Origin: an uncultured Phycisphaeraceae bacterium
Lineage (GTDB): Bacteria > Planctomycetota > Phycisphaerae > Phycisphaerales > UBA1924
Assembly: GCA_964460345.1 (NCBI GenBank)
Contig: CAYWRO010000011.1
Span: forward strand, 1,872-65,871
DNA length: 64,000 nt
Direction of reading: 5' to 3'
In this document: positions 7,591 through 64,000 of the stretch, piece by piece
Position numbering within the stretch: the first letter of the stretch is position 1
How the letters are laid out: every line of letters begins with the position of its first letter
The notes under the pieces: model-generated
Seen by the model: the letters and a program-made list of their open reading frames with translations, nothing else
What the model was told of the DNA's origin: nothing
Databases searched by the model: none
Program-made: the position numbers and the translations under genes

Positions 7591-7631
7591 GGCTGTGCGG
7601 GTTAGGACGTCTGCACGGCTGCGCCGCGGAG

Positions 7632-7695
7632 TACCGCGGCGAGCCGTGGCACCCATCGCGATGTACCGCGTCGAGCCGTGGCACTTATCGCGGTG
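7632..7695. repeat. Two tandem copies of a 32-bp unit in the convergent rsmA/mcsB spacer
   Basis: TACCGCGgCGAGCCGTGGCACccATCGCGatg (7632-7663) and TACCGCGtCGAGCCGTGGCACttATCGCGgtg (7664-7695). A CCGCGG-agta-CCGCGG hairpin precedes them at 7624-7639. Confidence 0.7.
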
Positions 7696-7719
7696 ACGCG
7701 TCGGATCGGGGCGCCCGGT

Positions 7720-17958: not shown

Positions 17959-20900
17959 ATGCCCAAGCGAACCGACATCAAAACCATCCTCATCCTCGGC
18001 TCCGGCCCCATCGTCATCGGTCAGGGGTGTGAGTTCGACTACTCCGGCACCCAGGCGTGCAAGGCGTTGCGCAGCGAGGGGTTCCGGGTTGTGCTGGTGA
18101 ACTCGAACCCGGCGACGATCATGACGGACCCGGAGTTCTCCGACCGGACGTACATCGAGCCGATCACGCCCGCGGCGGTCCGGAAGGTGATTGAGAAGCA
18201 GATCGAGATCGGGGACCCGATCGACGCCATCCTGCCGACGCTTGGCGGGCAGACGGCGCTGAACTGTGCGTGTGCGCTCTTTGACGATGGGACGCTGGAC
18301 AAGCACGGGATCGAGATGATCGGGGCGAACCGGCACGTGATCCACCGGGCGGAGGATCGCGCCGCGTTCAACGAGGTGTGTGCGCGCGTGGGGCTGCGCA
18401 TCCCGGAGAGCCGGACGGTCTCGACACTTGCCGAGGCGCGCGAGTTTCTGGAGCAGATCGGGCTGCCGGCGATCATCCGTCCGGCGTTCACGCTCGGCGG
18501 CAGTGGGGGAGGAATCGCGTACAACACGGAGGAGTTTGACGAGATTGTCAGCCGCGGGCTTCGGCTGAGCATGATCAACCAGGTGCAGATTGACAAGTCG
18601 CTGCTGGGGTGGAAGGAGTACGAGCTGGAGGTCGTGCGCGACAAGCGCGACAACTGCATCGTGGTGTGCGGGATCGAGAACTTCGATCCGATGGGCGTGC
18701 ACACGGGGGACTCGATCACGTTTGCGCCGATCATGACGCTGACCGACAAGGAGTATCAGGTGCTCCGCGACGCCAGCTTTGCGATCATGCGCGAGGTGGG
18801 CGTGGAGACGGGGGGGAGCAATGTGCAGTTCGCGGTGAACCCGAACCCGGAGGATGGGAAGTTCGAGTTCGTCGTCGTCGAGATGAACCCGCGCGTGTCG
18901 CGCTCCAGCGCGCTGGCATCCAAGGCGACGGGCTTCCCGATTGCGAAGATCGCGGCCAAGCTTGCGATCGGGTACACGCTGGACGAGCTGCGCAACGACA
19001 TCACGGGCACGACCAGTGCCTGCTTCGAGCCGAGCATCGACTACATCGTCACGAAGATGCCGCGGTGGACCTTTGAGAAGTTCCCCGAGGCGGATGAGAC
19101 GCTCACCACGCAGATGAAGAGCGTCGGCGAGGCGATGAGCATCGGGCGGACGCTGACCGAGTCGCTCCAGAAGGCGATCCGCTCGATGGAAGTGAAGCGC
19201 TTCGGCCTCGGGCTCGACCGCAACGACGACTGGCTGGAGGCCCGCCGCGCGACGAAGGACGAGCAGGGCGTGCCGCGGCGGACGGACGGCTCGCCGATCG
19301 AGTGGCCGATCCCCGAGGAGAAGCTGAGCCGCAAGCTCACGGTGCCGAGCCAGGGGCGGCTCTACTACATCCGCTACGCGATGAAGATGGGGTGGCCCGT
19401 CGAGCGCATCAACGCGCTTTCGAAGATCGATCCGTTCTTCTTGGACCAGATCAAGCGGCTCGTGGAGTTCGAGGACGAGCTGTGCGAGGTTGCGCGCCTG
19501 GAGGATTTGCCGCGCGAGACGCTTTTCCGCGCCAAGCAGATGGGGTACTCCGATGCGCAGCTTGCGAACCTGTACCTCGGGAAAATCTCGTCGGAGACGA
19601 TTCTGAAGGTGCGGGCGCATCGGAAGGCGCTCGGGATCGAGCCCGTCTACAAGCTCGTCGACACGTGCGCGGCGGAGTTCGAGGCGGTGACGCCGTATTA
19701 CTACTCGACGTATGAGCAGGGGGTGGAGCGGGCGAGAGACGGAGAGACGGAGAGACGAAGAGACGAAGTGGGGGATTCGCAAACGTCGTCCGACGCGCGA
19801 CACTCCGTCTCTTCGTCTCTAAGTCTCTCCGTCTCTCCCGACGACGAGATCCGCGTGACGGACCGCAAGAAGGTGATCATCCTCGGTGGCGGACCCAACC
19901 GCATCGGCCAGGGGATCGAGTTCGATTACTGCTGCGTGCACGCGGCGTTCGCGGCGAAGGAACTCGGCTTCGAGTCGGTGATGATCAACTCGAACCCGGA
20001 GACGGTATCAACCGACTACGACACGAGCGATCTGCTCTTCTTTGAGCCGTTGACGCTGGAGGATGTGCTGAACGTGGTGGAGCGGCTGAACGGGTCGGGG
20101 CCGGCAGTGGAGCAACTCGTCACGTCGGACGGGATCACGCTTGGCTTGGATCGTGCAAACGATGGTCAGCAGGTCCCTCCAGATTGGATTCAGCAGATTC
20201 GTCAGGCCGCGAGTGGCGCGGGTATCGGCCCCGTTGCAGTCGTGGACGCATTTCAGTCGCGGCACGAGACCGGAGTTCATGCCGTCGATCTTTCGGGAGG
20301 GTTGTGGAGGTTTGCGTTCAACGCTAAGAGCGGGGGCCCGGTCCACGTCGCGCAGTGGAACTGGGATGAAGCGCTGGGCGGTGACAATCGCGAGGAACGT
20401 GAACTGGCAGCGGCGTGGAGGGAACGTCGACGCCTCGTCAACGGCCTCATCGTCCAGTTCGGCGGCCAAACCCCCCTCAACCTAGCCCACGGCCTCGCCC
20501 GCGCCGGCGCCCCCATCATCGGCACCTCTCTCGACTCGATCGACCTCGCCGAAGACCGCGACCGCTTCGACAAGCTCCTCACGCAGCTCAATCTTCAAAA
20601 ACCTCCCAGCGGCATCGCCCGCTCCGTCGATCAGGCCGTTGAGATCGCCGGCCGCATCGGCTACCCCGTTCTCGTCCGCCCCTCGTACGTCCTCGGCGGC
20701 CGCGGCATGGAGATCTGCTCCGACGAGAAGGCCTTGCGGCACTACATGGCGACGGCGGTGGACATTTCCGAACTCGACAACGCCCCGGTGCTGATTGATA
20801 AGTTTCTTGATCGGGCGACGGAAGTGGATGTTGACGTCGTGGCTGACTTCGAACCTTCGGGGAGAGACAAAGAGACAAAGAGACGAAGAGACGAAGTGGG

Positions 20901-31710: not shown

Positions 31711-31780
31711 AATTTATCAGTTGCACGGAGCGTCGCGTGGGTCCGCGGTTTGTTCGGGTCGAAGGTCCGGATAACGCAGG

Positions 31781-32011
31781 CAAATGATCAAATGAGCGGC
31801 CCAAATGATCAAATGGACCGGGCAAATGATCAAATGGACGGAGCAAATGATCAAATGGACGGGCCAAATGATCGAATGAGCGGGCCAAATGATCAAATGG
31901 ATGGAGCAAATGATCAGATGGCCCGTTTCATTCGTTCAGATGGATGGTTCAATCGTTCAAATGAGCGGCCCATTCGTTCAAGTGGCTCGTCCATTCGTTC
32001 GAATGAAGCGT
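31781..32011. repeat. Tandem array B: 11 units of exactly 21 bp (7 x CAAATGATCAAATGnnnnGnn, then 4 x yCATTCGTTCAAATGnnnnGn)
   Basis: CAAATGATC starts at 31781, 31802, 31823, 31844, 31865, 31886 and 31907. The variant units start at 31928, 31949, 31970 and 31991. Confidence 0.9.
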
Positions 32012-57077: not shown

Positions 57078-58523
57078 ATGACCTTTGCGGGCTCGGATCG
57101 GCGGCTGCGGTGGTTCTCCCGGATCATTCGGGCAGCGGTGGTCGGCGCAATCGTGGTGGTCTCCATCGCGATCGCCTTCTGGCTGATCGCCACGCGCCCT
57201 GCCATCGATCGCGCCCCGCCCACCGAACACGCCCGCTCCGTCACCGCCATCCTTGCCGAGCGGCGGCCGGTGGCCCGGCTCTGGCAAGGGCACGGCGCGG
57301 CCCGGCCCCGTGACGCCGCGGACGTCGCCGCGGAGGTCGCCGGCGTGGTGCAGGTCCGCCCGGAGGGGATCGAGGCCGGCGCGCGCGTCCGCGCTGGAGA
57401 TGTCATCGTCCGCCTCGACGACGCCGACTACGCCAATCAGCTCGAGGCCGCGCAGCAGAGCGTCGCCGCGCTCACGGCGCAGCGCGCCACGCTGGAGGCC
57501 GAGCAGGCCCAACTCGATTCGCAGATCGTCCAGATCCAGGAGCAGATCGACGTCACCGAGGAAGAGATCCGCCGCTGGGGGGAAGCCCGCGCCAGCGGCG
57601 CGGCCTCCGAGATCGAGCAGCTTCGCCTCCGCGGCACGCTTGCCGGCCTGCGCGAGGCCTTGGCCGCCCTGACGGGGCAGCTCAGCCAGATCCCTTCCCG
57701 GCGCGAGCGCATCGAGGCGGAGATCGGCGCTCAGCGAAACAGCGCCAACACCGCCCAGCGCAACCTCGAGCGCACGCGCATCATCGCGCCCCTCGATGGC
57801 TACCTGCAGTCGGTGAACGTCGACGTTGGCGAGTTCGTCGCGGTGGGCACGCCCGTCGCACGCATCGTCGACCTGTCGCGCATTGAAATCCCCATCCGCA
57901 TCGGTGCCTCGGCGTTCGGACGAATCCGGGTCGGTGACCAGGTCGATCTCCGCGCTCCCGGGCCCACGCAGGACCGCTGGACCGGCCGCATCGCGCGCAT
58001 CGCCCCGGAAGTTGACGAGGCCCGCACGCTCACCGTCTTCGTCGAGGTCGATCAATCTGCCCCGGCGAGCCTTGACGCCGCGGCGGACAGCGTCACCGCC
58101 GCCGCGGACTCGCGCTCAGCCTCACCGTTGCTCCTCCCCGGGCGCTTCGTGGTCGCGGCCATCCGCAGCGCCGATCCCGAACCGCTCTTCCTCGTTCCGC
58201 GTTTCGCCGTCCGTGACGACCGCGTGCTTGTCGCCGTGAATGGACGCGACGTTCCCCGCATCGCCGCCCGCCAGGTCGAAGTCCTTTTCCATCTTGAGGG
58301 GGAGTATCCCGAACTGGACCCCGGCGTGCGCGAGTGGGCCGCCATCGCCAGCGGGATCAACGAGGGCGACCTCGTCGTGACCTCCAACATCGATGAACTC
58401 GAACCCGGCGAGGCAGTCGCCGTTCGCGACGTGGGCGAGCGTGCCTCCACCAGTGAGGCCGCGGCGGGTGGGGACGCCTCCCCCGAGTCTCTCGCCGAGC
58501 CCGAGAGGGGCCGCGGCGGATGA
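57078..58523 (+). CDS. Efflux RND transporter periplasmic adaptor (HlyD/MFP family)
   Basis: N-terminal TM, lipoyl-like GDVIVRLDD, a long coiled coil, and RTRIIAPLDGYLQSVNVDVGEFV. The stop overlaps the RND pump start. Confidence 0.85.
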   Translation: MTFAGSDRRLRWFSRIIRAAVVGAIVVVSIAIAFWLIATRPAIDRAPPTEHARSVTAILAERRPVARLWQGHGAARPRDAADVAAEVAGVVQVRPEGIEAGARVRAGDVIVRLDDADYANQLEAAQQSVAALTAQRATLEAEQAQLDSQIVQIQEQIDVTEEEIRRWGEARASGAASEIEQLRLRGTLAGLREALAALTGQLSQIPSRRERIEAEIGAQRNSANTAQRNLERTRIIAPLDGYLQSVNVDVGEFVAVGTPVARIVDLSRIEIPIRIGASAFGRIRVGDQVDLRAPGPTQDRWTGRIARIAPEVDEARTLTVFVEVDQSAPASLDAAADSVTAAADSRSASPLLLPGRFVVAAIRSADPEPLFLVPRFAVRDDRVLVAVNGRDVPRIAARQVEVLFHLEGEYPELDPGVREWAAIASGINEGDLVVTSNIDELEPGEAVAVRDVGERASTSEAAAGGDASPESLAEPERGRGG

Positions 58524-61500
58524 TGCGCGCCATCGCCCACTACGGCGTTCATCACCCGGTGGTCGTTAACCTCCTGGTCTTCACGCTCGTCGCCGCGGGG
58601 CTCATCTTCGGCGTGACGCTGCGGCGCGAGTTCTTCCCCGAGGTGCGGCCGAACCTCGTCGTGGTCGCAGCGCCGTATCCCGGCGCTGCGCCCGATGAGA
58701 TCGAGCAGTCCCTCGTCCTCAAGATCGAAGACGCGATTGCGGACCTCAACGACGTCGTCGAGATCCAGACGACCGTGACCTTCGGCGCGGCGAGTGTCCA
58801 GGTCGAGTTCGCCGAGGGCGTGGACATCGAGGACGCCGTCGCGCAGGTCAAGCGCAAAGTCGACGCCCTTGAAGACCTGCCCCCGCAGAGCGAACGCATC
58901 GTCGTGCAGGAACTGGAGCCGAACCTCCCCGCCATCGCGCTCACGTACACCGGGGAGGGCGATGAACGGCAGATGAAGCGCATCATCCGCGGCATGCGCG
59001 ACGACCTCGAGTCCTTCCCCGAGATGGGGGGCATCGTCGTCTCAGGCGTCCGCAACGATGAGATTTCCGTCGAGGTCCACCCGCCGGCGCTGCTGGAGCA
59101 CTCGCTCTCCATCGCCGCCGTCAGCCAGCGCATCACCGAGGCGATGCGCGAGATCCCCGGCGGCTCCGTGCGCACGAGCAGCGCCACCATCTCCATCCGC
59201 ACCATCGGCGCGCAGGAGCAGGCCGAGGAGGTGCGCGACATCGTCGTCAAGGCGCTGCCGGAAGGGTCGGCCATCCGCATCCGCGACATCGCCGATGTGA
59301 CCGTCGGCTTTGAGGATGTGGACCTCATCACGCGCCTCAACGGCAAGCCGGCCGTCTCCCTGACCGCCTTCAAGGTCGGCGATGAGGACGCCGTGCTCAT
59401 CAGCGAGATGGTCCGCGCCTACGCCGCCGGACGCACGCGCCAGCCCCTGGAGCTGTCGCGCCGCGAGAGCCTGTCCATTGCCGCCGTCGAGCGCTCCGGT
59501 TCGGCTCTCCCGCCGCGCATCGCGGCGTACCGCCTCGGCCTTGCCCGCCCGCCGATCGACGCCGAAGACCTCATCCCCAATACCGATCTGGCCCGCTTCA
59601 TCACCGACCGCCTTGAGCTGCTCAGCCGCAACGCTTTCTGGGGCGGCATCTTCGTGTTCGCGTCGCTCCTGCTGCTCTTAAACCTGCGCGTCGCGCTGTG
59701 GGTCACCGCCGGGCTCATCATCAGCATCCTCGGCACGCTCGCCTTCATGGCCGCGGCGGACATCACGCTCAACCTCATGACGATGTTCGGCCTCATCATC
59801 GTCATCGGCATTCTCGTCGACGACGGCATCGTCATCAGCGAGAACATCACGGCTCGCCACGAGGCGGGAGAGCCGGCGCTGACCGCCGCCGTCAACGGCA
59901 TGCGCGAGGTCGCCTGGCCGGTCGTCGCGACGGTCATCACCACGGTGCTGGCCTTCGGCTCGCTCGTATTTGTGCAGGGGCAGGTGGGGGACATGCTCGC
60001 CGTGCTGCCGGCGGTCGTCGTGGTTGCGCTGAGCGTCTCGCTCATCGAGGCGCTCTTCGTCCTGCCCAGCCACATGGCCCACTCCCTGCACCGCCACGAG
60101 CAGCGCGCCAGGCCCGGGCGCGTGGCGCGGTTCATGGACCGCATGGATGAGCGCCGCCTCCGCCTCATCCAGCAGGTCATCGTGCCGCGCTACCTCGTGA
60201 TCCTGCGCACCTGCGCCACGCACCGGTACATCACCTGCGCGGCCGCCGCGGCCCTGCTCATCATTTCGCTGGCGATGGTCGCGGGGGGGCGGCTGCCCTT
60301 CTCCTTCCTCGGCACGCAGGACGCCGAAACCATCGTCGTCGACCTGCAGATGCCGATCGGCACGCCGTTGTCCGCGACCGAGCGCATCATGGCTCGGATC
60401 GAGCGCGCTGCGCTTGACCAGCCGGAGGTCAGCACCGCGCTGGCCGTCATCGGGGCGCGCTCCAACGCCGACGGCCGCGAGAACATCGCCCAGTCGCACG
60501 TGGGACAGATCTGGATCGAGCTCAAGCCCGGCGAGGAGCGTGACCGCACCAGCGACGACGTCATCGCCTCCATCCGGCAGGGTGCGGGCGACCTTCCGGG
60601 CATCCGCTCGCTGCGCATCAACGGCCTCTCCGGCGGCCCCGAAGGCCCCGCGCTCACGTACACGGTCACGAGCGACCGTCCCTCGCTCATCCCGCCGGTC
60701 GTGCAGGCCGTGAAGGACCTGCTGGCCACTGTGCCCATGGTCTACGACGTCGCCGACGATGCCGACGCCGGCGCGCGGGAGCTGCGCATCGAGCTTCTTC
60801 CCGGCGCGCGCGAGCTCGGCTTCACCGTCGAGTCGATCGCCATGCAGATCCGCGGCTGGGTCTACGGCCTGGAGCCGCACACCTTCGCCGCGCCCGATGA
60901 GGACGTCGATGTGCGCGTCATGCTCGATGCGCCGTGGCGGCGCTCGCTCGCCGCGATCGAGCACCTGGACGTCTTTACGCCGGATGCCGGAGGGGGGGGA
61001 GGGGGAAGCCGCGCGGTGCCGCTGCGCGAGGTCGCCCGCCTCACCGAGGCGGAGGCATACGCCACCGTGCGCCGCCTCGACCGCCGCCGCGCCGTCTCCG
61101 TCACCGCCGAGGTCGTCGACAAGGCGAGCCAGACGGAGAAGATCGCCGCGCAGTTGGCGCCGCTCATCGCGGAGATCGAGCGCGAGCACCGCGGCGTGCG
61201 CATCCTCGAGCGCGGCCAGCAGGAGGAGGTCGCCGACTCGCTTTCGACGCTTCCCCTGGGCATCCTCGTCGCGTGCTCGCTGATTTACGTGACGCTCGTC
61301 ATCCTCTTCAACTCATTCCTGCAGCCGGGGATCATTCTCTTCACCGTTCCCTTCTCAATCGTCGGGATGGTGTGGGGGCACCTGGCCCTCGGCTACGACC
61401 TGACGATGCTGTCGCTCATCGGCTTCATCGCCCTGACCGGCGTCGTCGTCAACGACGCCATCATCTTCATCGAGTTTTACAACCACAAGCGCCGCGAAGG

Positions 61501-61819
61501 GGTCAACGTCTTCGACGCCGTGATGGAGGCCGGCCGCGCGCGCCTCCGTCCGATCATCCTCACCACGCTCACGACCGTCCTCGGCCTGCTCCCCCTCATC
61601 ACGGAAACGTCCTTCCAGGCCCGCTTCCTGATCCCCATGGCGATCACGATCAGCTTCGGCCTCCTCGCCGCGACGGTCGGCGTGCTGCTCGTCACCCCGT
61701 GCGTCATCCTCATCGGCGACGACCTCCGCGCGCTCGCGCGGCTGCTGTGGAAAGGCGAGCGCCGCCCCGACCCCGCCGAGGCGTACACCATTACGCCGTC
61801 CGAGCACGCCCGGATGTGA
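58520..61819 (+). CDS. Efflux RND transporter permease (AcrB/CzcA superfamily)
   Basis: 1099 aa with the 12-TM, two-large-loop architecture. Typical GLIIVIGILVDDGIV and GFIALTGVVVNDAII TM4/TM10 motifs. Confidence 0.92.
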   Translation: MMRAIAHYGVHHPVVVNLLVFTLVAAGLIFGVTLRREFFPEVRPNLVVVAAPYPGAAPDEIEQSLVLKIEDAIADLNDVVEIQTTVTFGAASVQVEFAEGVDIEDAVAQVKRKVDALEDLPPQSERIVVQELEPNLPAIALTYTGEGDERQMKRIIRGMRDDLESFPEMGGIVVSGVRNDEISVEVHPPALLEHSLSIAAVSQRITEAMREIPGGSVRTSSATISIRTIGAQEQAEEVRDIVVKALPEGSAIRIRDIADVTVGFEDVDLITRLNGKPAVSLTAFKVGDEDAVLISEMVRAYAAGRTRQPLELSRRESLSIAAVERSGSALPPRIAAYRLGLARPPIDAEDLIPNTDLARFITDRLELLSRNAFWGGIFVFASLLLLLNLRVALWVTAGLIISILGTLAFMAAADITLNLMTMFGLIIVIGILVDDGIVISENITARHEAGEPALTAAVNGMREVAWPVVATVITTVLAFGSLVFVQGQVGDMLAVLPAVVVVALSVSLIEALFVLPSHMAHSLHRHEQRARPGRVARFMDRMDERRLRLIQQVIVPRYLVILRTCATHRYITCAAAAALLIISLAMVAGGRLPFSFLGTQDAETIVVDLQMPIGTPLSATERIMARIERAALDQPEVSTALAVIGARSNADGRENIAQSHVGQIWIELKPGEERDRTSDDVIASIRQGAGDLPGIRSLRINGLSGGPEGPALTYTVTSDRPSLIPPVVQAVKDLLATVPMVYDVADDADAGARELRIELLPGARELGFTVESIAMQIRGWVYGLEPHTFAAPDEDVDVRVMLDAPWRRSLAAIEHLDVFTPDAGGGGGGSRAVPLREVARLTEAEAYATVRRLDRRRAVSVTAEVVDKASQTEKIAAQLAPLIAEIEREHRGVRILERGQQEEVADSLSTLPLGILVACSLIYVTLVILFNSFLQPGIILFTVPFSIVGMVWGHLALGYDLTMLSLIGFIALTGVVVNDAIIFIEFYNHKRREGVNVFDAVMEAGRARLRPIILTTLTTVLGLLPLITETSFQARFLIPMAITISFGLLAATVGVLLVTPCVILIGDDLRALARLLWKGERRPDPAEAYTITPSEHARM

Positions 61820-61868
61820 CGCTCGCCTCCCCCATTGCGTGCGTCCTCCCCGTTATCGGTGGCTCGTT

Positions 61869-61887
61869 GCCGCAAAAGCGGCTTTCT
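61869..61887 (+). terminator. Small hairpin plus T-tract after the RND gene
   Basis: GCCGC-aaaa-GCGGC followed by TTTCT. Confidence 0.3.
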
Positions 61888-61925
61888 GCCTCGCCACAGC
61901 GGTTTTCACGTCCGAATAACCGGCG

Positions 61926-62156
61926 CCTGAAATGATTTCTGACGCACCAGAATTGATTTCGGACGAGTCGGACACGAGTTTGCACGCGTCGGAAGTGGGT
62001 CCGCACGCGTCCGAAACGACATCCGATGCGTCCGACACGAAGTCGCACGCATGAGAACTCAAGTCGGACGCATCAAAAACGAGGTTGCACGCGTCTCAGA
62101 CGAACTCGCACGCGTCTGAGATGAAATCGCACGCTCCTGAAATGAAGTCGCACACA
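61926..62156. repeat. Tandem array C: 11 units of exactly 21 bp (consensus TCnGAnAcGAnnTcGCACGCG)
   Basis: Unit starts at 61926, 61947, 61968, 61989, 62010, 62031, 62052, 62073, 62094, 62115 and 62136. A degenerate extra unit lies at 61905. Confidence 0.9.
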
Positions 62157-62172
62157 CGCCTCCCCGCCCCCC

Positions 62173-62235
62173 ATTCTCTATTCTCTCTTCTCTATTCTCT
62201 AATCACTACCCACTGTCCACTATCAACTATCAACT
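62173..62235. repeat. Nine tandem heptamers (ATTCTCT x4-like, then AnyCACT / ATCAACT)
   Basis: ATTCTCT ATTCTCT CTTCTCT ATTCTCT AATCACT ACCCACT GTCCACT ATCAACT ATCAACT. AT-rich, and immediately 3' of the rnr stop. Confidence 0.8.
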
Positions 62236-62241
62236 GCCAAA

Positions 62242-64000
62242 CTACTTCTTCTTCCCCTTCCGCGGGTTCCGGTGCTCCGTCTTCCCGCGGTCGCGCTGCT
62301 TGCTGCGGCGTGAGCGCTTCTCCGCCCCCGTGCTCTTGCGGCCCTTGAAGGCGTCCCAGTCGATGTTCAAGCCGCCCTCGCCCAGCCCGCCCGTCAGGTC
62401 GCGGCGCTTGCCGACGTCGCGCGACTTGGAGTCCGCCAGCACGACGGTCAGCCGACGCGCGGACAGGTCGATCTCCGCGATCCGAACCGTCACGCGGTCG
62501 CCGATGCGGAAGGAGCGCCCCGTCGAGGCGTTCACGAGCGAGCCGGTGCGCTGGTCGATCCGCCACCCGCCCGGCCCGCCCTGGCCCCCCGGCAGGTCCG
62601 ACGTCGGGATCGCGCCGTCGGCCCGGTACTTCTCGATCTGCACGAAGACCTGCCGCGGCGACACGCCCGTGACGATCGCGGGGAAGTCTTCGCCCGCCTT
62701 GGTCTCGAGGAACTGCAGCACGAGGAACTGCCGCAGGTCGCGCTCCGCCTCCTGCGCCTGCACTTCCGTGTTCGAGCAGTGCCGCCCGATGATGACGAGC
62801 TCATCCTGGTTGGGCACCTTGCCGGAGTCGAGCATGTCGCTTCCGAGGTTGCGGCGGGCGTTCTCGTTGGTCGGGATCTTCTCGCCGTTGTCGGTGCGCT
62901 TGAGGTACTCGGCCAGCGCGCGGTGCACCGTCAGGTCCGGGTAGCGGCGGATCGGGCTGGTGAAGTGCGCGTACGCCTCGCTGGCGAGCGCGAAGTGGCC
63001 GACGAGCGCGGGGGAATACTCGGCTTTCGAGAGCGTCCGCAGCAGCGCCATGTGCACGGCGGGGGCGATCGGCGTGCCGGCGGTGGCGTCGAGGATCGAC
63101 TGCAACTCTTCGCGCGTCGGGCTCTTGGGGATCTTGATCCCCGCGACCGAGGCGCTGATGCGCAGCTCTTCCGTGTCTCCCGGCGTCGGCTCCGGGTGGA
63201 TGCGCCGCAGGAGCGGCACGCCGAGCCCTTCGAAGAGGCGCGCGAGGACTTCGTTCGCCTCGACCATGAACATCTCGATGAGCGTGTGCGTGAAGGCGTC
63301 GTCCTCCGGGTGCACATCGATCACGCGGCCGGAATCGTCGAACTCCAGCTCGGCGTCCGGCAGCTCCAGGTGGATCATCCCCGCCTTGCGGCGCCGCTCG
63401 CGGATGGCGTGGGCGAGCGTGTTCATCTCGCGCAGCGCCTGGATGAGCTCATCCGTGTACTTCGGCTCCGTTTTGGCGTGCTTGCGGGCTTCCTTGATGT
63501 CGCCGTCGATCAGCGCCTGGGCTTCGAGATACGTCAGGCGCTTGTTGGACTTGATCACCGTGTTGGCGACGCCTTCTCCGGTGCGCCGCCCCTGCCGGTC
63601 GTAGCGCATGAACGCGCTCTTGGTGAAGCGCGTCACGCCCTCGGCCAGCGAGCAGATGCCATTGGAGAGAATCTCCGGCAGCATCGGGATCACCAGCCGC
63701 GGCAGGTAGACGCTGTTGCCGCGCTGGTGCGCCTCGACGTCCATGGGCGAACCCGCCGTGACGAAGTGCGAAACGTCCGCGATGTGCACGATCAGTTCCC
63801 AGCCGTCGCCATCCTCCGTGCGGCGGATGCTGATCGCATCGTCGTAGTCGCGCGCATCGGGCGGGTCGATCGTCGCGGTGAACGTCTCGCGATGATCCTC
63901 GCGGATCGTCCGGTCGTACCCCTCCTTCTCCAGCCGCTCGACCTCTTCCTCAAACTCCGCCGTGACGCGCCGCGCGTGTTCGACGACCCCCTTCGGAAAC
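62242..64000 (-). CDS. rnr: Ribonuclease R (N-terminus beyond the window end)
   Basis: RNB motif TIDPPDARDYDDAISI upstream of the track ORF (read by me in frame to position 64000), then a C-terminal S1 domain and a Lys/Arg-rich tail. Confidence 0.9.
   Translation of the reverse strand, partial: FPKGVVEHARRVTAEFEEEVERLEKEGYDRTIREDHRETFTATIDPPDARDYDDAISIRRTEDGDGWELIVHIADVSHFVTAGSPMDVEAHQRGNSVYLPRLVIPMLPEILSNGICSLAEGVTRFTKSAFMRYDRQGRRTGEGVANTVIKSNKRLTYLEAQALIDGDIKEARKHAKTEPKYTDELIQALREMNTLAHAIRERRRKAGMIHLELPDAELEFDDSGRVIDVHPEDDAFTHTLIEMFMVEANEVLARLFEGLGVPLLRRIHPEPTPGDTEELRISASVAGIKIPKSPTREELQSILDATAGTPIAPAVHMALLRTLSKAEYSPALVGHFALASEAYAHFTSPIRRYPDLTVHRALAEYLKRTDNGEKIPTNENARRNLGSDMLDSGKVPNQDELVIIGRHCSNTEVQAQEAERDLRQFLVLQFLETKAGEDFPAIVTGVSPRQVFVQIEKYRADGAIPTSDLPGGQGGPGGWRIDQRTGSLVNASTGRSFRIGDRVTVRIAEIDLSARRLTVVLADSKSRDVGKRRDLTGGLGEGGLNIDWDAFKGRKSTGAEKRSRRSKQRDRGKTEHRNPRKGKKK

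Follow-up and report, generated by a model that had tools for sequence, protein, structure and literature searches.

Array C, a tandem repeat of 11 units of 21 bp lying between the genes for an efflux pump and RNase R, is a real, non-coding repeat. It is a member of a genome-wide class of arrays with an exact unit length in common, and often also a short signal at the flank, whereas the repeated sequence itself is not shared; this combination is not accounted for by any bacterial repeat class so far described. The explanation favoured here, to which we would give about an even chance, is that array C forms the repeat component of a dispersed leader-plus-minisatellite element that resembles BrickBuilt and turns over by in-register slippage. 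Bacterial intergenic repeats such as REP, BOX, MIRU and MITEs are usually defined by a common sequence, whereas here the definition is by length, exactly 21 bp, in around 100 arrays. No description of a 21-bp rule in prokaryotes was found in a full-text literature search.

Structure and surroundings of array C

The window analysed here is a stretch of 64,000 nucleotides (contig C11, positions 1872-65871) from a 3.83-Mb draft genome of 152 contigs and ~67% GC, the closest sequenced relatives of which show ~60% amino-acid identity. By the homologs of its RNase R and RND proteins the genome falls in the Phycisphaerales (Planctomycetota). When the sequence is laid out in rows of 21 bp, array C is seen on the + strand at 61926-62156 as 11 units in a register without an indel. 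At lags 21, 42 and 63 the self-identity is 0.68, 0.60 and 0.63 respectively, and it lies at 0.19-0.28 at lags 7, 10, 11, 14, 19, 20, 22 and 23, which bears out the unbroken phase over 231 bp of the original prediction. The consensus is TCTGAAATGAATTCGCACGCG, with which each unit agrees at 14-18 of the 21 positions; the mean pairwise identity of the units is 0.63, and between 0 and 7 of the 11 units are mismatched in any one column. The conserved core and the ACGCGT palindrome that had been reported are both present, the core reading ..TCGCACGCGTC.GA... A lag-21 detector gives the extent of the array as 61916-62178. Within it TRF at default stringency picks up no more than the best three units, at 62087-62153, with 84% matches over 3.2 copies and a score of 85; these look the youngest, and array C is accordingly old and degenerate. 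The array had also been described as open in several frames, which is wrong, as there is at least one stop in each of the six.

Two further arrays in the window were identified by TRF, by sequence rows and by the lag detector. Array B (31765-32011, + strand, with a motif search in addition) has an unrelated unit and is of the same class; a polar motif, GTCCGGATAAC, stands at 31765-31775 and the array runs from 31779. Array A (1177-1405, no strand assigned) is again of this class, with a 21-bp register and a GGGCCC core, and no polar motif was found for it. The view that arrays A, B and C are of one kind, each with a core, a variable part and a strict 21-bp phase, was right and extends genome-wide.

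As had been noted, array C lies between the 3' ends of two convergent genes, the stops of which are at 61819 (+ strand) and 62242 (- strand). The first gene (58520-61819, + strand) was recognised from the ORF list and its translation as an RND efflux permease of the AcrB/HAE1 type; its homologs are named efflux RND transporter permease and carry PF00873. The second is represented by the 3' part of rnr (62242-64000, - strand), identified by translation as encoding RNase R, for which 80 homologs in the Phycisphaerales show 56-65% identity. From the stop of the RND gene it is 23 nt to the leader of array C, which is described below. Directly 3' of the array there is a C-rich, G-poor tract, CGCCTCCCCGCCCCCC (62157-62172, + strand), and similar poly-C tracts occur after a paralogous array on contig C119 and flanking an array in the related genome G006. 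The remainder of the spacer, up to the rnr stop codon, consists of heptamer arrays found by TRF (62173-62241, + strand), namely (ATTCTCT)x4.1 at 62173-62201 followed by heptamers of the CACTnnC type that include (ACTATCA)x2.4 at 62219-62235. Logan contigs encoding an identical RND protein end 16 nt past the gene and give no independent view of array C; the genome is present in the metagenomes SRR11843814, SRR11843824 and SRR11843832. Nothing suggests that array C serves rnr or the RND pump, and the spacer that it shares with the heptamer repeats is a tolerant one.

The 21-bp class in the genome and in relatives

Over the whole genome TRF returned 235 rows with a period of 21, and 97 of these reach four copies or more, as against 17 rows each at periods 20 and 22, almost none of which do so. 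A lag scan of the genome gave 118 segments (25.8 kb) at lag 21, a single segment at lag 22 and none at lag 20, 10 or 11, with lags 42 and 63 echoing lag 21. Once heptamer and period-3 runs had been taken out, 134 arrays locked to 21 bp were obtained, with edges that are uncertain by 10-40 nt when set by the lag detector. At least seven units are present in 82 of these arrays, the mode being 9-12 units, and this corresponds to ~21 arrays of at least seven units per Mb. Contig ends coincide with 16 of the 82 and five lie beside N gaps, so that the array counts and unit numbers are lower bounds. On the practical side, 21-bp arrays break short-read assemblies and inflate ORF calls in high-GC MAGs.

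A convergent setting is not characteristic of the class: only 5 of the 46 classifiable arrays lie between convergent genes, the others being found between tandem (28) or divergent (13) genes in proportions near the background mix. These assignments depend on a gene map from a crude GC3-based ORF picker, and the 25 arrays that it placed within genes mostly reflect over-extended ORFs. Since the class occupies every kind of spacer, it is incidental that arrays B and C lie between convergent genes.

Comparison of 77 consensus units showed that most unit sequences are private to one array and that relationships exist only within small families. In 31 pairs the two units agree at no fewer than 15 of the 21 positions (4.8 such pairs in shuffles), and near-identical dispersed copies are found on contigs C75, C113 and C101 and on contigs C45 and C98. 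Perfect palindromes are in excess, those of at least 6 bp occurring in 47 of the 77 units (28 +/- 4 when shuffled) and those of at least 8 bp in 26 (9.4 +/- 2.6). Alternating purine-pyrimidine runs of eight or more occur in 17 units, compared with 6.9 +/- 2.5. The variable columns are grouped in blocks (328 runs vs 376 +/- 9), giving a layout of core plus spacer, and unit GC is 0.645, about the level of the genome. There is no excess of A-tracts in the units and no sub-period of 10-11 bp in the arrays (lags 10 and 11 at background), so the unit has no obvious bending code.

The relatives were sampled over ~2.1 Mb, which is a small sample. Among 80 other Phycisphaerales (1.0 Mb) no array was found near rnr. 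Within the family, G044, which belongs to another genus, has three arrays in 100 kb, all with private units and one of them placed after GGGTCCGGATATGG. In G006 there are three segments in 420 kb, of which one or two are arrays of the 21-bp class and one looks coding, and G043, G086 and G113 have no arrays in the 100 kb sampled from each. At lags 20 and 22 nothing was detected in any relative sampled. Many non-coding arrays per genome, with unrelated units and an exact period of 21 or 42 bp, are found in the genome studied here and also in G044. For one array of G044 just a single neighbouring gene could be aligned, and within 1.5 kb of that gene the array is absent in three congeners (DNA identity 85-87%); an array related to it lies 1.3 Mb away within G044. 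The distribution is patchy, and on the sequences compared the class is at least family-wide and is gained or lost at about the species level.

A polar motif and the leaders

The most informative feature of array C was overlooked in the original prediction. This is a flanking signal, GTCCGAATAAC (61910-61920, + strand), together with the leader of which it forms the proximal end. In a k-mer analysis of the array flanks, words containing ATAAC stood out as 20-38 fold enriched. The motif G(T/G)C(C/A)(G)GATAAC, counted within ~25 nt of the array edge, is present at one edge and points inward in 38 of the 82 arrays, where ~3 would be expected from the intergenic background, and it is present at both edges in none of the 82. 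The arrays are therefore polar, and this polarity is new here. Variants of the motif, GTCCAATAAG and GTCCAATATG, push the share above 38 of 82; in about half of the arrays no motif can be recognised. Arrays begin 3-25 nt past the motif, the gap being 3 nt at array B (motif at 31765-31775) and 5 nt at array C. The window contains three copies of GTCCGRATAAC (0.01 expected), two of them adjoining arrays B and C and one within a gene. No link was found between the orientation of the arrays and that of the neighbouring genes (22 to 12 and 18 to 14, not significant). A one-sided signal at about half of the arrays offers a concrete experimental entry to what fixes the period, and it suggests that some arrays are transcribed units.

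The wider distribution of the motif bears on what it may be. CnGATAA(C/T) is ~5-fold denser per base in intergenic DNA, where 121 of 231 sites fall in ~17% of the genome, and of the intergenic sites away from arrays 28 point toward the 5' end of a gene and 13 toward the 3' end (51% expected). Across 61 genomes of the family GTCCGGATAAY was counted 124 times against 25 for a reversed control (totals summed from a table), a ~5-fold excess, and in genome G244 it stands 26 nt before a clpX-like start. As the motif is also found before ordinary genes, it looks like a promoter. It does not make arrays alone, given that in four other genera 20 sites carry the motif and are not followed by an array. 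A housekeeping -10 element was considered and rejected as the identity of the motif, the tRNA promoters having an ordinary TTGAC / TAnnnT. The -10 element of sigma-28 (FliA/WhiG) promoters is GCCGATAA, to which the proximal motif of array C bears a likeness, in that CCGATAA or a one-base variant of it lies within the array-flanking (G/T)CCG(G)ATAAC. A FliA/WhiG sigma factor above the family cut-off is encoded in the genome. No TAAA signal of the -35 region was found upstream of the 121 intergenic motif sites, and the motif is absent upstream of the three genes matching Flagellin_N. On sequence grounds the match to sigma-28 is only a resemblance.

The leader of array C is ~85 nt in length (61843-61925). 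Its distal end, GTCCTCCCCGTTATCGGTGG (61843-61862, + strand), is a GATAAC-type motif on the opposite strand that points away from the array. In a genome search allowing up to four substitutions, paralogous leaders were found at C17:27213, C117:2987 (- strand) and C119:427 (- strand), each of which keeps the proximal motif and is followed by a 21-bp array. Alignment of these three with the leader of array C shows ~20 invariant columns and a sharp left boundary to the left of which there is no similarity. A 16-mer scan of the genome contigs for the type-1 leader gave chance matches only. The units on C117 and C119 have the orientation of those of array C and agree with them at 14-15 of the 21 positions, and the C17 unit agrees at 9 of 21, which is not a match. 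Inside the leader an MFE fold predicts a GC hairpin, GCCGC-AAAA-GCGGC followed by TTTCT (61866-61885, + strand), that may be a weak candidate for a terminator of the RND operon; it was not called by a terminator scan. A GC hairpin is seen at the matching place in the paralogous leaders without supporting covariation, and the alignment of the four leaders gives no support for a conserved RNA fold.

Leaders of types other than that of array C are present on contigs C5, C22, C24, C75, C101 and C113. One type, ending in ...GCAAACGCGGGTGCACGTCAGATAACCCTCGC, is found on C24, C75, C101, C102, C113 and C5, and a further type of 75 nt on C5 had no true homologs when searched for in 200 genomes of the order. 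Among 630 pairs of oriented elements, related units were found in 5 of 11 pairs with related leaders, compared with 3% of pairs with unrelated leaders, and in 6 of the 11 the units were no more alike than chance. Leaders and units thus descend together in part. At C5:64806 and C5:65205 two leaders in tandem are 89% identical and have 13-14 units each, and the two arrays are mutually dissimilar by eye. The shared descent of leaders and units, taken with the near-identical copies described above, suggests that the elements spread as leader plus array, with the array changing much faster than the leader or being replaced. No downstream module common to the oriented arrays was found. The only inverted pair at the array C element is GTTATC/GATAAC inside the leader, and terminal inverted repeats matching a known IS, a target-site duplication and a link to a transposase were likewise not found.

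Explanations and known repeat systems

If array C is part of a leader-plus-minisatellite element, this would consist of the ~85-nt leader, bounded by inverted GTTATC/GATAAC motifs, followed from 5 nt past the proximal motif by about ten 21-bp units. The array would probably be transcribed from the leader motif, as this is a family-wide promoter-like signal, and copies of the element would have spread to other intergenic sites. Whole units could subsequently be gained and lost by in-register slippage or unequal recombination. Slippage of this kind would keep the 21-bp register while the unit sequence drifted, or was replaced, faster than the leader, and the arrays would as a result have a common period and mostly not a common sequence. 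The six of 11 related-leader pairs with unrelated units count against descent and drift, which would need either strongly constrained leaders or the wholesale replacement of arrays. Inheritance alone does not account for near-identical leaders with unrelated arrays, and pure descent fails to account for the lack of drift to a period of 20 or 22 bp.

It is possible, if unlikely, that the arrays are protein-binding platforms similar to iterons or centromeres, in which each unit would provide a dyad site for a cooperative dimeric DNA-binding or nucleoid protein. A spacing of 21 bp, or two helical turns, would put the sites on one face of the DNA, and nucleation might take place at the GATAAC motif. 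Iterons and type II centromeres have periods of ~20-22 bp, a range that includes the period of the arrays, and the fairly uniform array size (9-12 units), the palindrome excess and the block-clustering of variable columns into core and spacer are all consistent with binding sites. In array C, moreover, TC(G/C)GA and CT(G/C)AG flip the central base and keep the dyad. Against this, such platforms would call either for a separate specific protein for each of the ~100 unit sequences or for a single protein indifferent to sequence, and the arrays are not conserved at orthologous loci. The palindromic columns are not significantly better conserved (0.765 vs 0.733, p = 0.10), and with no A-tract excess and no half-period signal the units have no shared shape signal. 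A different proposal, which we consider quite unlikely, is that a sequence-blind ruler, whether an enzyme or a quirk of replication or repair, duplicates arbitrary DNA in 21-nt steps, preferentially beside GATAAC, so that arrays are born locally. The absolute lock of the period (0-1 segments at lags 20 and 22) argues for this, as do the unrelated arrays behind nearly identical leaders, the start of arrays within 3-25 nt of the motif and a unit that is not built of heptamers. However, many arrays clearly share ancestry with their leaders, the motif stands without an array at the 20 sites in other genera, and no candidate enzyme was found, a Piwi gene being absent. That a ruler of two helical turns (21 nt), blind to sequence, both builds and maintains the arrays in this Planctomycetota lineage, starting at the promoter-like GATAAC, is in our view rather unlikely; were it true, the polar leader motif would be its first cis-acting handle.

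We attach little probability to the view that the arrays specify functional repeat RNAs, each made by transcription from the leader motif and serving as a sponge or scaffold or being cut to ~21-nt pieces. The promoter-like motif does point into the array, array orientation is independent of the neighbouring genes and the tract 3' of array C, being rich in C and poor in G, would by its sequence suit Rho-dependent termination, but the fold of array C barely beats shuffles (z = -2.4 on the + strand and -1.1 on the - strand) and the four leaders lack conserved structure. There is no significant Rfam match, the best being to a miRNA model at 28 bits, below threshold; units are not conserved between loci or species; and an Argonaute gene, which might be linked to the 21-nt size, is absent, no Piwi gene having been found in six genomes. 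The two readings that concern array C itself, as a terminator and as a coding sequence, are unlikely. That array C terminates transcription in both directions, or insulates the convergent RND and rnr genes from each other, is very improbable in spite of its location between the 3' ends and of the ability of neighbouring units to pair, as for example TCTCAGACG with CGTCTGAGA, since the terminator scan called no terminator-like site, so few of the arrays share the convergent setting and no array lies beside rnr in other Phycisphaerales. It is extremely improbable that the array encodes a small peptide of heptad repeats, 21 bp being equal to seven codons. Frame +0 would give a heptad resembling (S/T)(D/H)AS(E/D)xx with only one stop, and its mismatches are somewhat commoner at third positions (15, 15, 27), an excess that is not significant (chi-square ~5, 2 df). 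Stops interrupt every frame, however (exactly one in four frames and four in the other two), the ATG at 61932 has no visible ribosome-binding site ahead of it, and GC3 in the best frame is 0.65-0.66 compared with 0.83-0.93 in the neighbouring genes. Across 76 arrays there is no period-3 pattern of mismatches and this, with the low GC3 of array C, means that open frames carry no weight for the class.

Among known systems the closest to the leader-plus-minisatellite element proposed here is the BrickBuilt MITE of Porphyromonas gingivalis, which is always intergenic and combines a leader with tandem repeats of 23 nt and a tail (Klein et al. 2015, PMC4596501). The BrickBuilt leader has promoter activity and whole units are gained or lost between strains; MITE464/PgRS of the same species also bears a minisatellite, with a repeat of 41 nt (PMC4596501). 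The likeness to these elements lies in a conserved leader, as found at array C, adjoining a tandem repeat of about two helical turns without spacers, and extends to an exclusively intergenic location, multiple dispersed copies and units with a conserved and a variable half. BrickBuilt has one 23-nt unit in all copies, a tail and IS5-like terminal inverted repeats. In contrast, the arrays described here have units of exactly 21 bp that are mostly private, lack a tail or ends of the IS type and follow several unrelated types of leader with the ~11-nt motif alone in common.

Minisatellites, VNTRs, MIRU and the prokaryote satellites are likewise tandem repeats of non-coding intergenic DNA, in which change probably takes place by whole units. 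A survey of prokaryote satellites reports no common unit length, but in a few species it found families of non-coding satellites that had been transposed (Subirana and Messeguer 2019, PMC6749651). [quoted passage not shown] Here, by comparison, ~21 arrays per Mb come from the 21-bp class alone.

Iterons and centromeres such as parC and sopC consist of direct repeats of ~20-22 bp in 4-12 copies, often with internal dyads and in helical register, and are similar to the arrays also in having their own sequence at each replicon or locus. Unlike them, the arrays described here have no adjacent rep or par gene, number ~100 in chromosomal spacers beside housekeeping genes and are not conserved between species. 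The identification of array C as a replication origin or a set of iterons was rejected, as the neighbours are the RND pump gene and rnr and the GC content is about that of the genome; the polar motif resembles a DnaA box in TTATCC only. A CRISPR array was rejected as well, in view of the 21-bp period, the degenerate core of ~12 nt and the lack of unique spacers, and inspection of the DNA beside array C revealed no CRISPR- or cas-like features.

STRR-like heptamer arrays of the kind found at PF05635 genes share spacers with the 21-bp arrays. A heptamer array lies within 250 bp of 12 of the 82 21-bp arrays, compared with 15 of 576 other long spacers. The possibility that the 21-bp unit is a triple heptamer was rejected, as identity at lags 7 and 14 is at background and a sub-period of either length is absent. 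The genome has four genes above the family cut-off for PF05635 (‘23S rRNA intervening-sequence protein’) and a partial one below it, and inverted arrays of 7-8 nt bracket all four of the full genes. Counts of PF05635 genes set beside array density (G000, 5; G006, 2; G044, 1; G086, 1; G043, 0; G113, 0) are suggestive at most, coming from six genomes and small samples. There is no PF05635 gene inside or next to array C. The relationship between the heptamer/PF05635 arrays and the 21-bp arrays is one of co-location, not identity, and it is seen at array C itself, where the adjacent ATTCTCT/CTCTCTT unit is also the unit of one arm of a PF05635 cassette on contig C106.

Contig ends near the leader of array C

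The identical RND protein is encoded in three independent metagenome assemblies (Logan contigs L207-L209, from SRR11843832, SRR11843824 and SRR11843814). Past the RND stop codon all three contigs end within approximately 16-33 nt, either where the leader that precedes the eleven 21-bp units of array C begins or just short of that point. That three of three independent assemblies end near the leader suggests that the leader/array C region is polymorphic or disrupts short-read assembly.

The GATAAC-type motif upstream of ordinary genes

The clearest example of the promoter-like, array-edge motif preceding an ordinary gene by a distance typical of promoters comes from the related genome G244 (L294, G244:C19:30987-31060). 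Here GTCCGGATAAC is found 26 nt 5' of the point where translation of a clpX-like ORF would start; the product of this ORF includes ...CSFCGK.... On contig C1 of the source genome two motif copies, GGCCGGATAAC and GCGCCGATAAT, are present at C1:4380-4450; the gene for the FliA/WhiG sigma factor, fliA (C1:5066-5734), lies approximately 600 nt downstream of them, beyond another ORF.

Clusters of 21-bp arrays and adjoining repeats

The 21-bp arrays of the source genome are often clustered, with two or three different arrays per spacer of at least 1 kb, as at C10:15138-16089, C5:3375-3864, C5:64854-65619 and C31:24200-25502; a tRNA-Arg gene (C10:16399) adjoins one cluster. A REP-like palindromic multi-copy element of approximately 30 nt, CCGCGCGGAGTACCGCGTGGGCATGCCACCC, adjoins many of the 21-bp arrays (flanks on C1, C4, C5, C6, C7, C24, C45 and C98, for example C5:64440-64480). 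It is also present at 7631-7703 of the window as a 32-bp TRF row and is occasionally itself tandem with a period of 42 bp. In G044, another relative, the array on L273 adjoins an element of approximately 400-490 nt (L273:13900-14390, equivalent to G044:C1:533900-534390) that has more than 30 copies in that genome and fewer in its congeners. Copies of this element match both strands and it is therefore palindromic.

PF05635 genes and inverted heptamer and octamer arrays

Four genes for PF05635 proteins ('23S rRNA intervening-sequence protein', four-helix-bundle) were found in source-genome contigs outside the window (C23:3716-4212, C52:18179-18715, C106:611-1153 and C1:63245-63700). Each is bracketed by inverted arrays with units of 7-8 nt, examples of the arm pairs being (AGAGACGA)4 ... 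(CTTCGTCT)4 and (TTGGGCT)5 ... (AGCCCAG)5.7. A longer reading frame seems to enclose the C23 copy. The window carries octamer arrays GAGAGACG, CTCCGTCT and AGAGACAA at 19734-19765, 19803-19838 and 20863-20896, all within carB as annotated in the original prediction, and their unit almost matches the arms of the C23 cassette.
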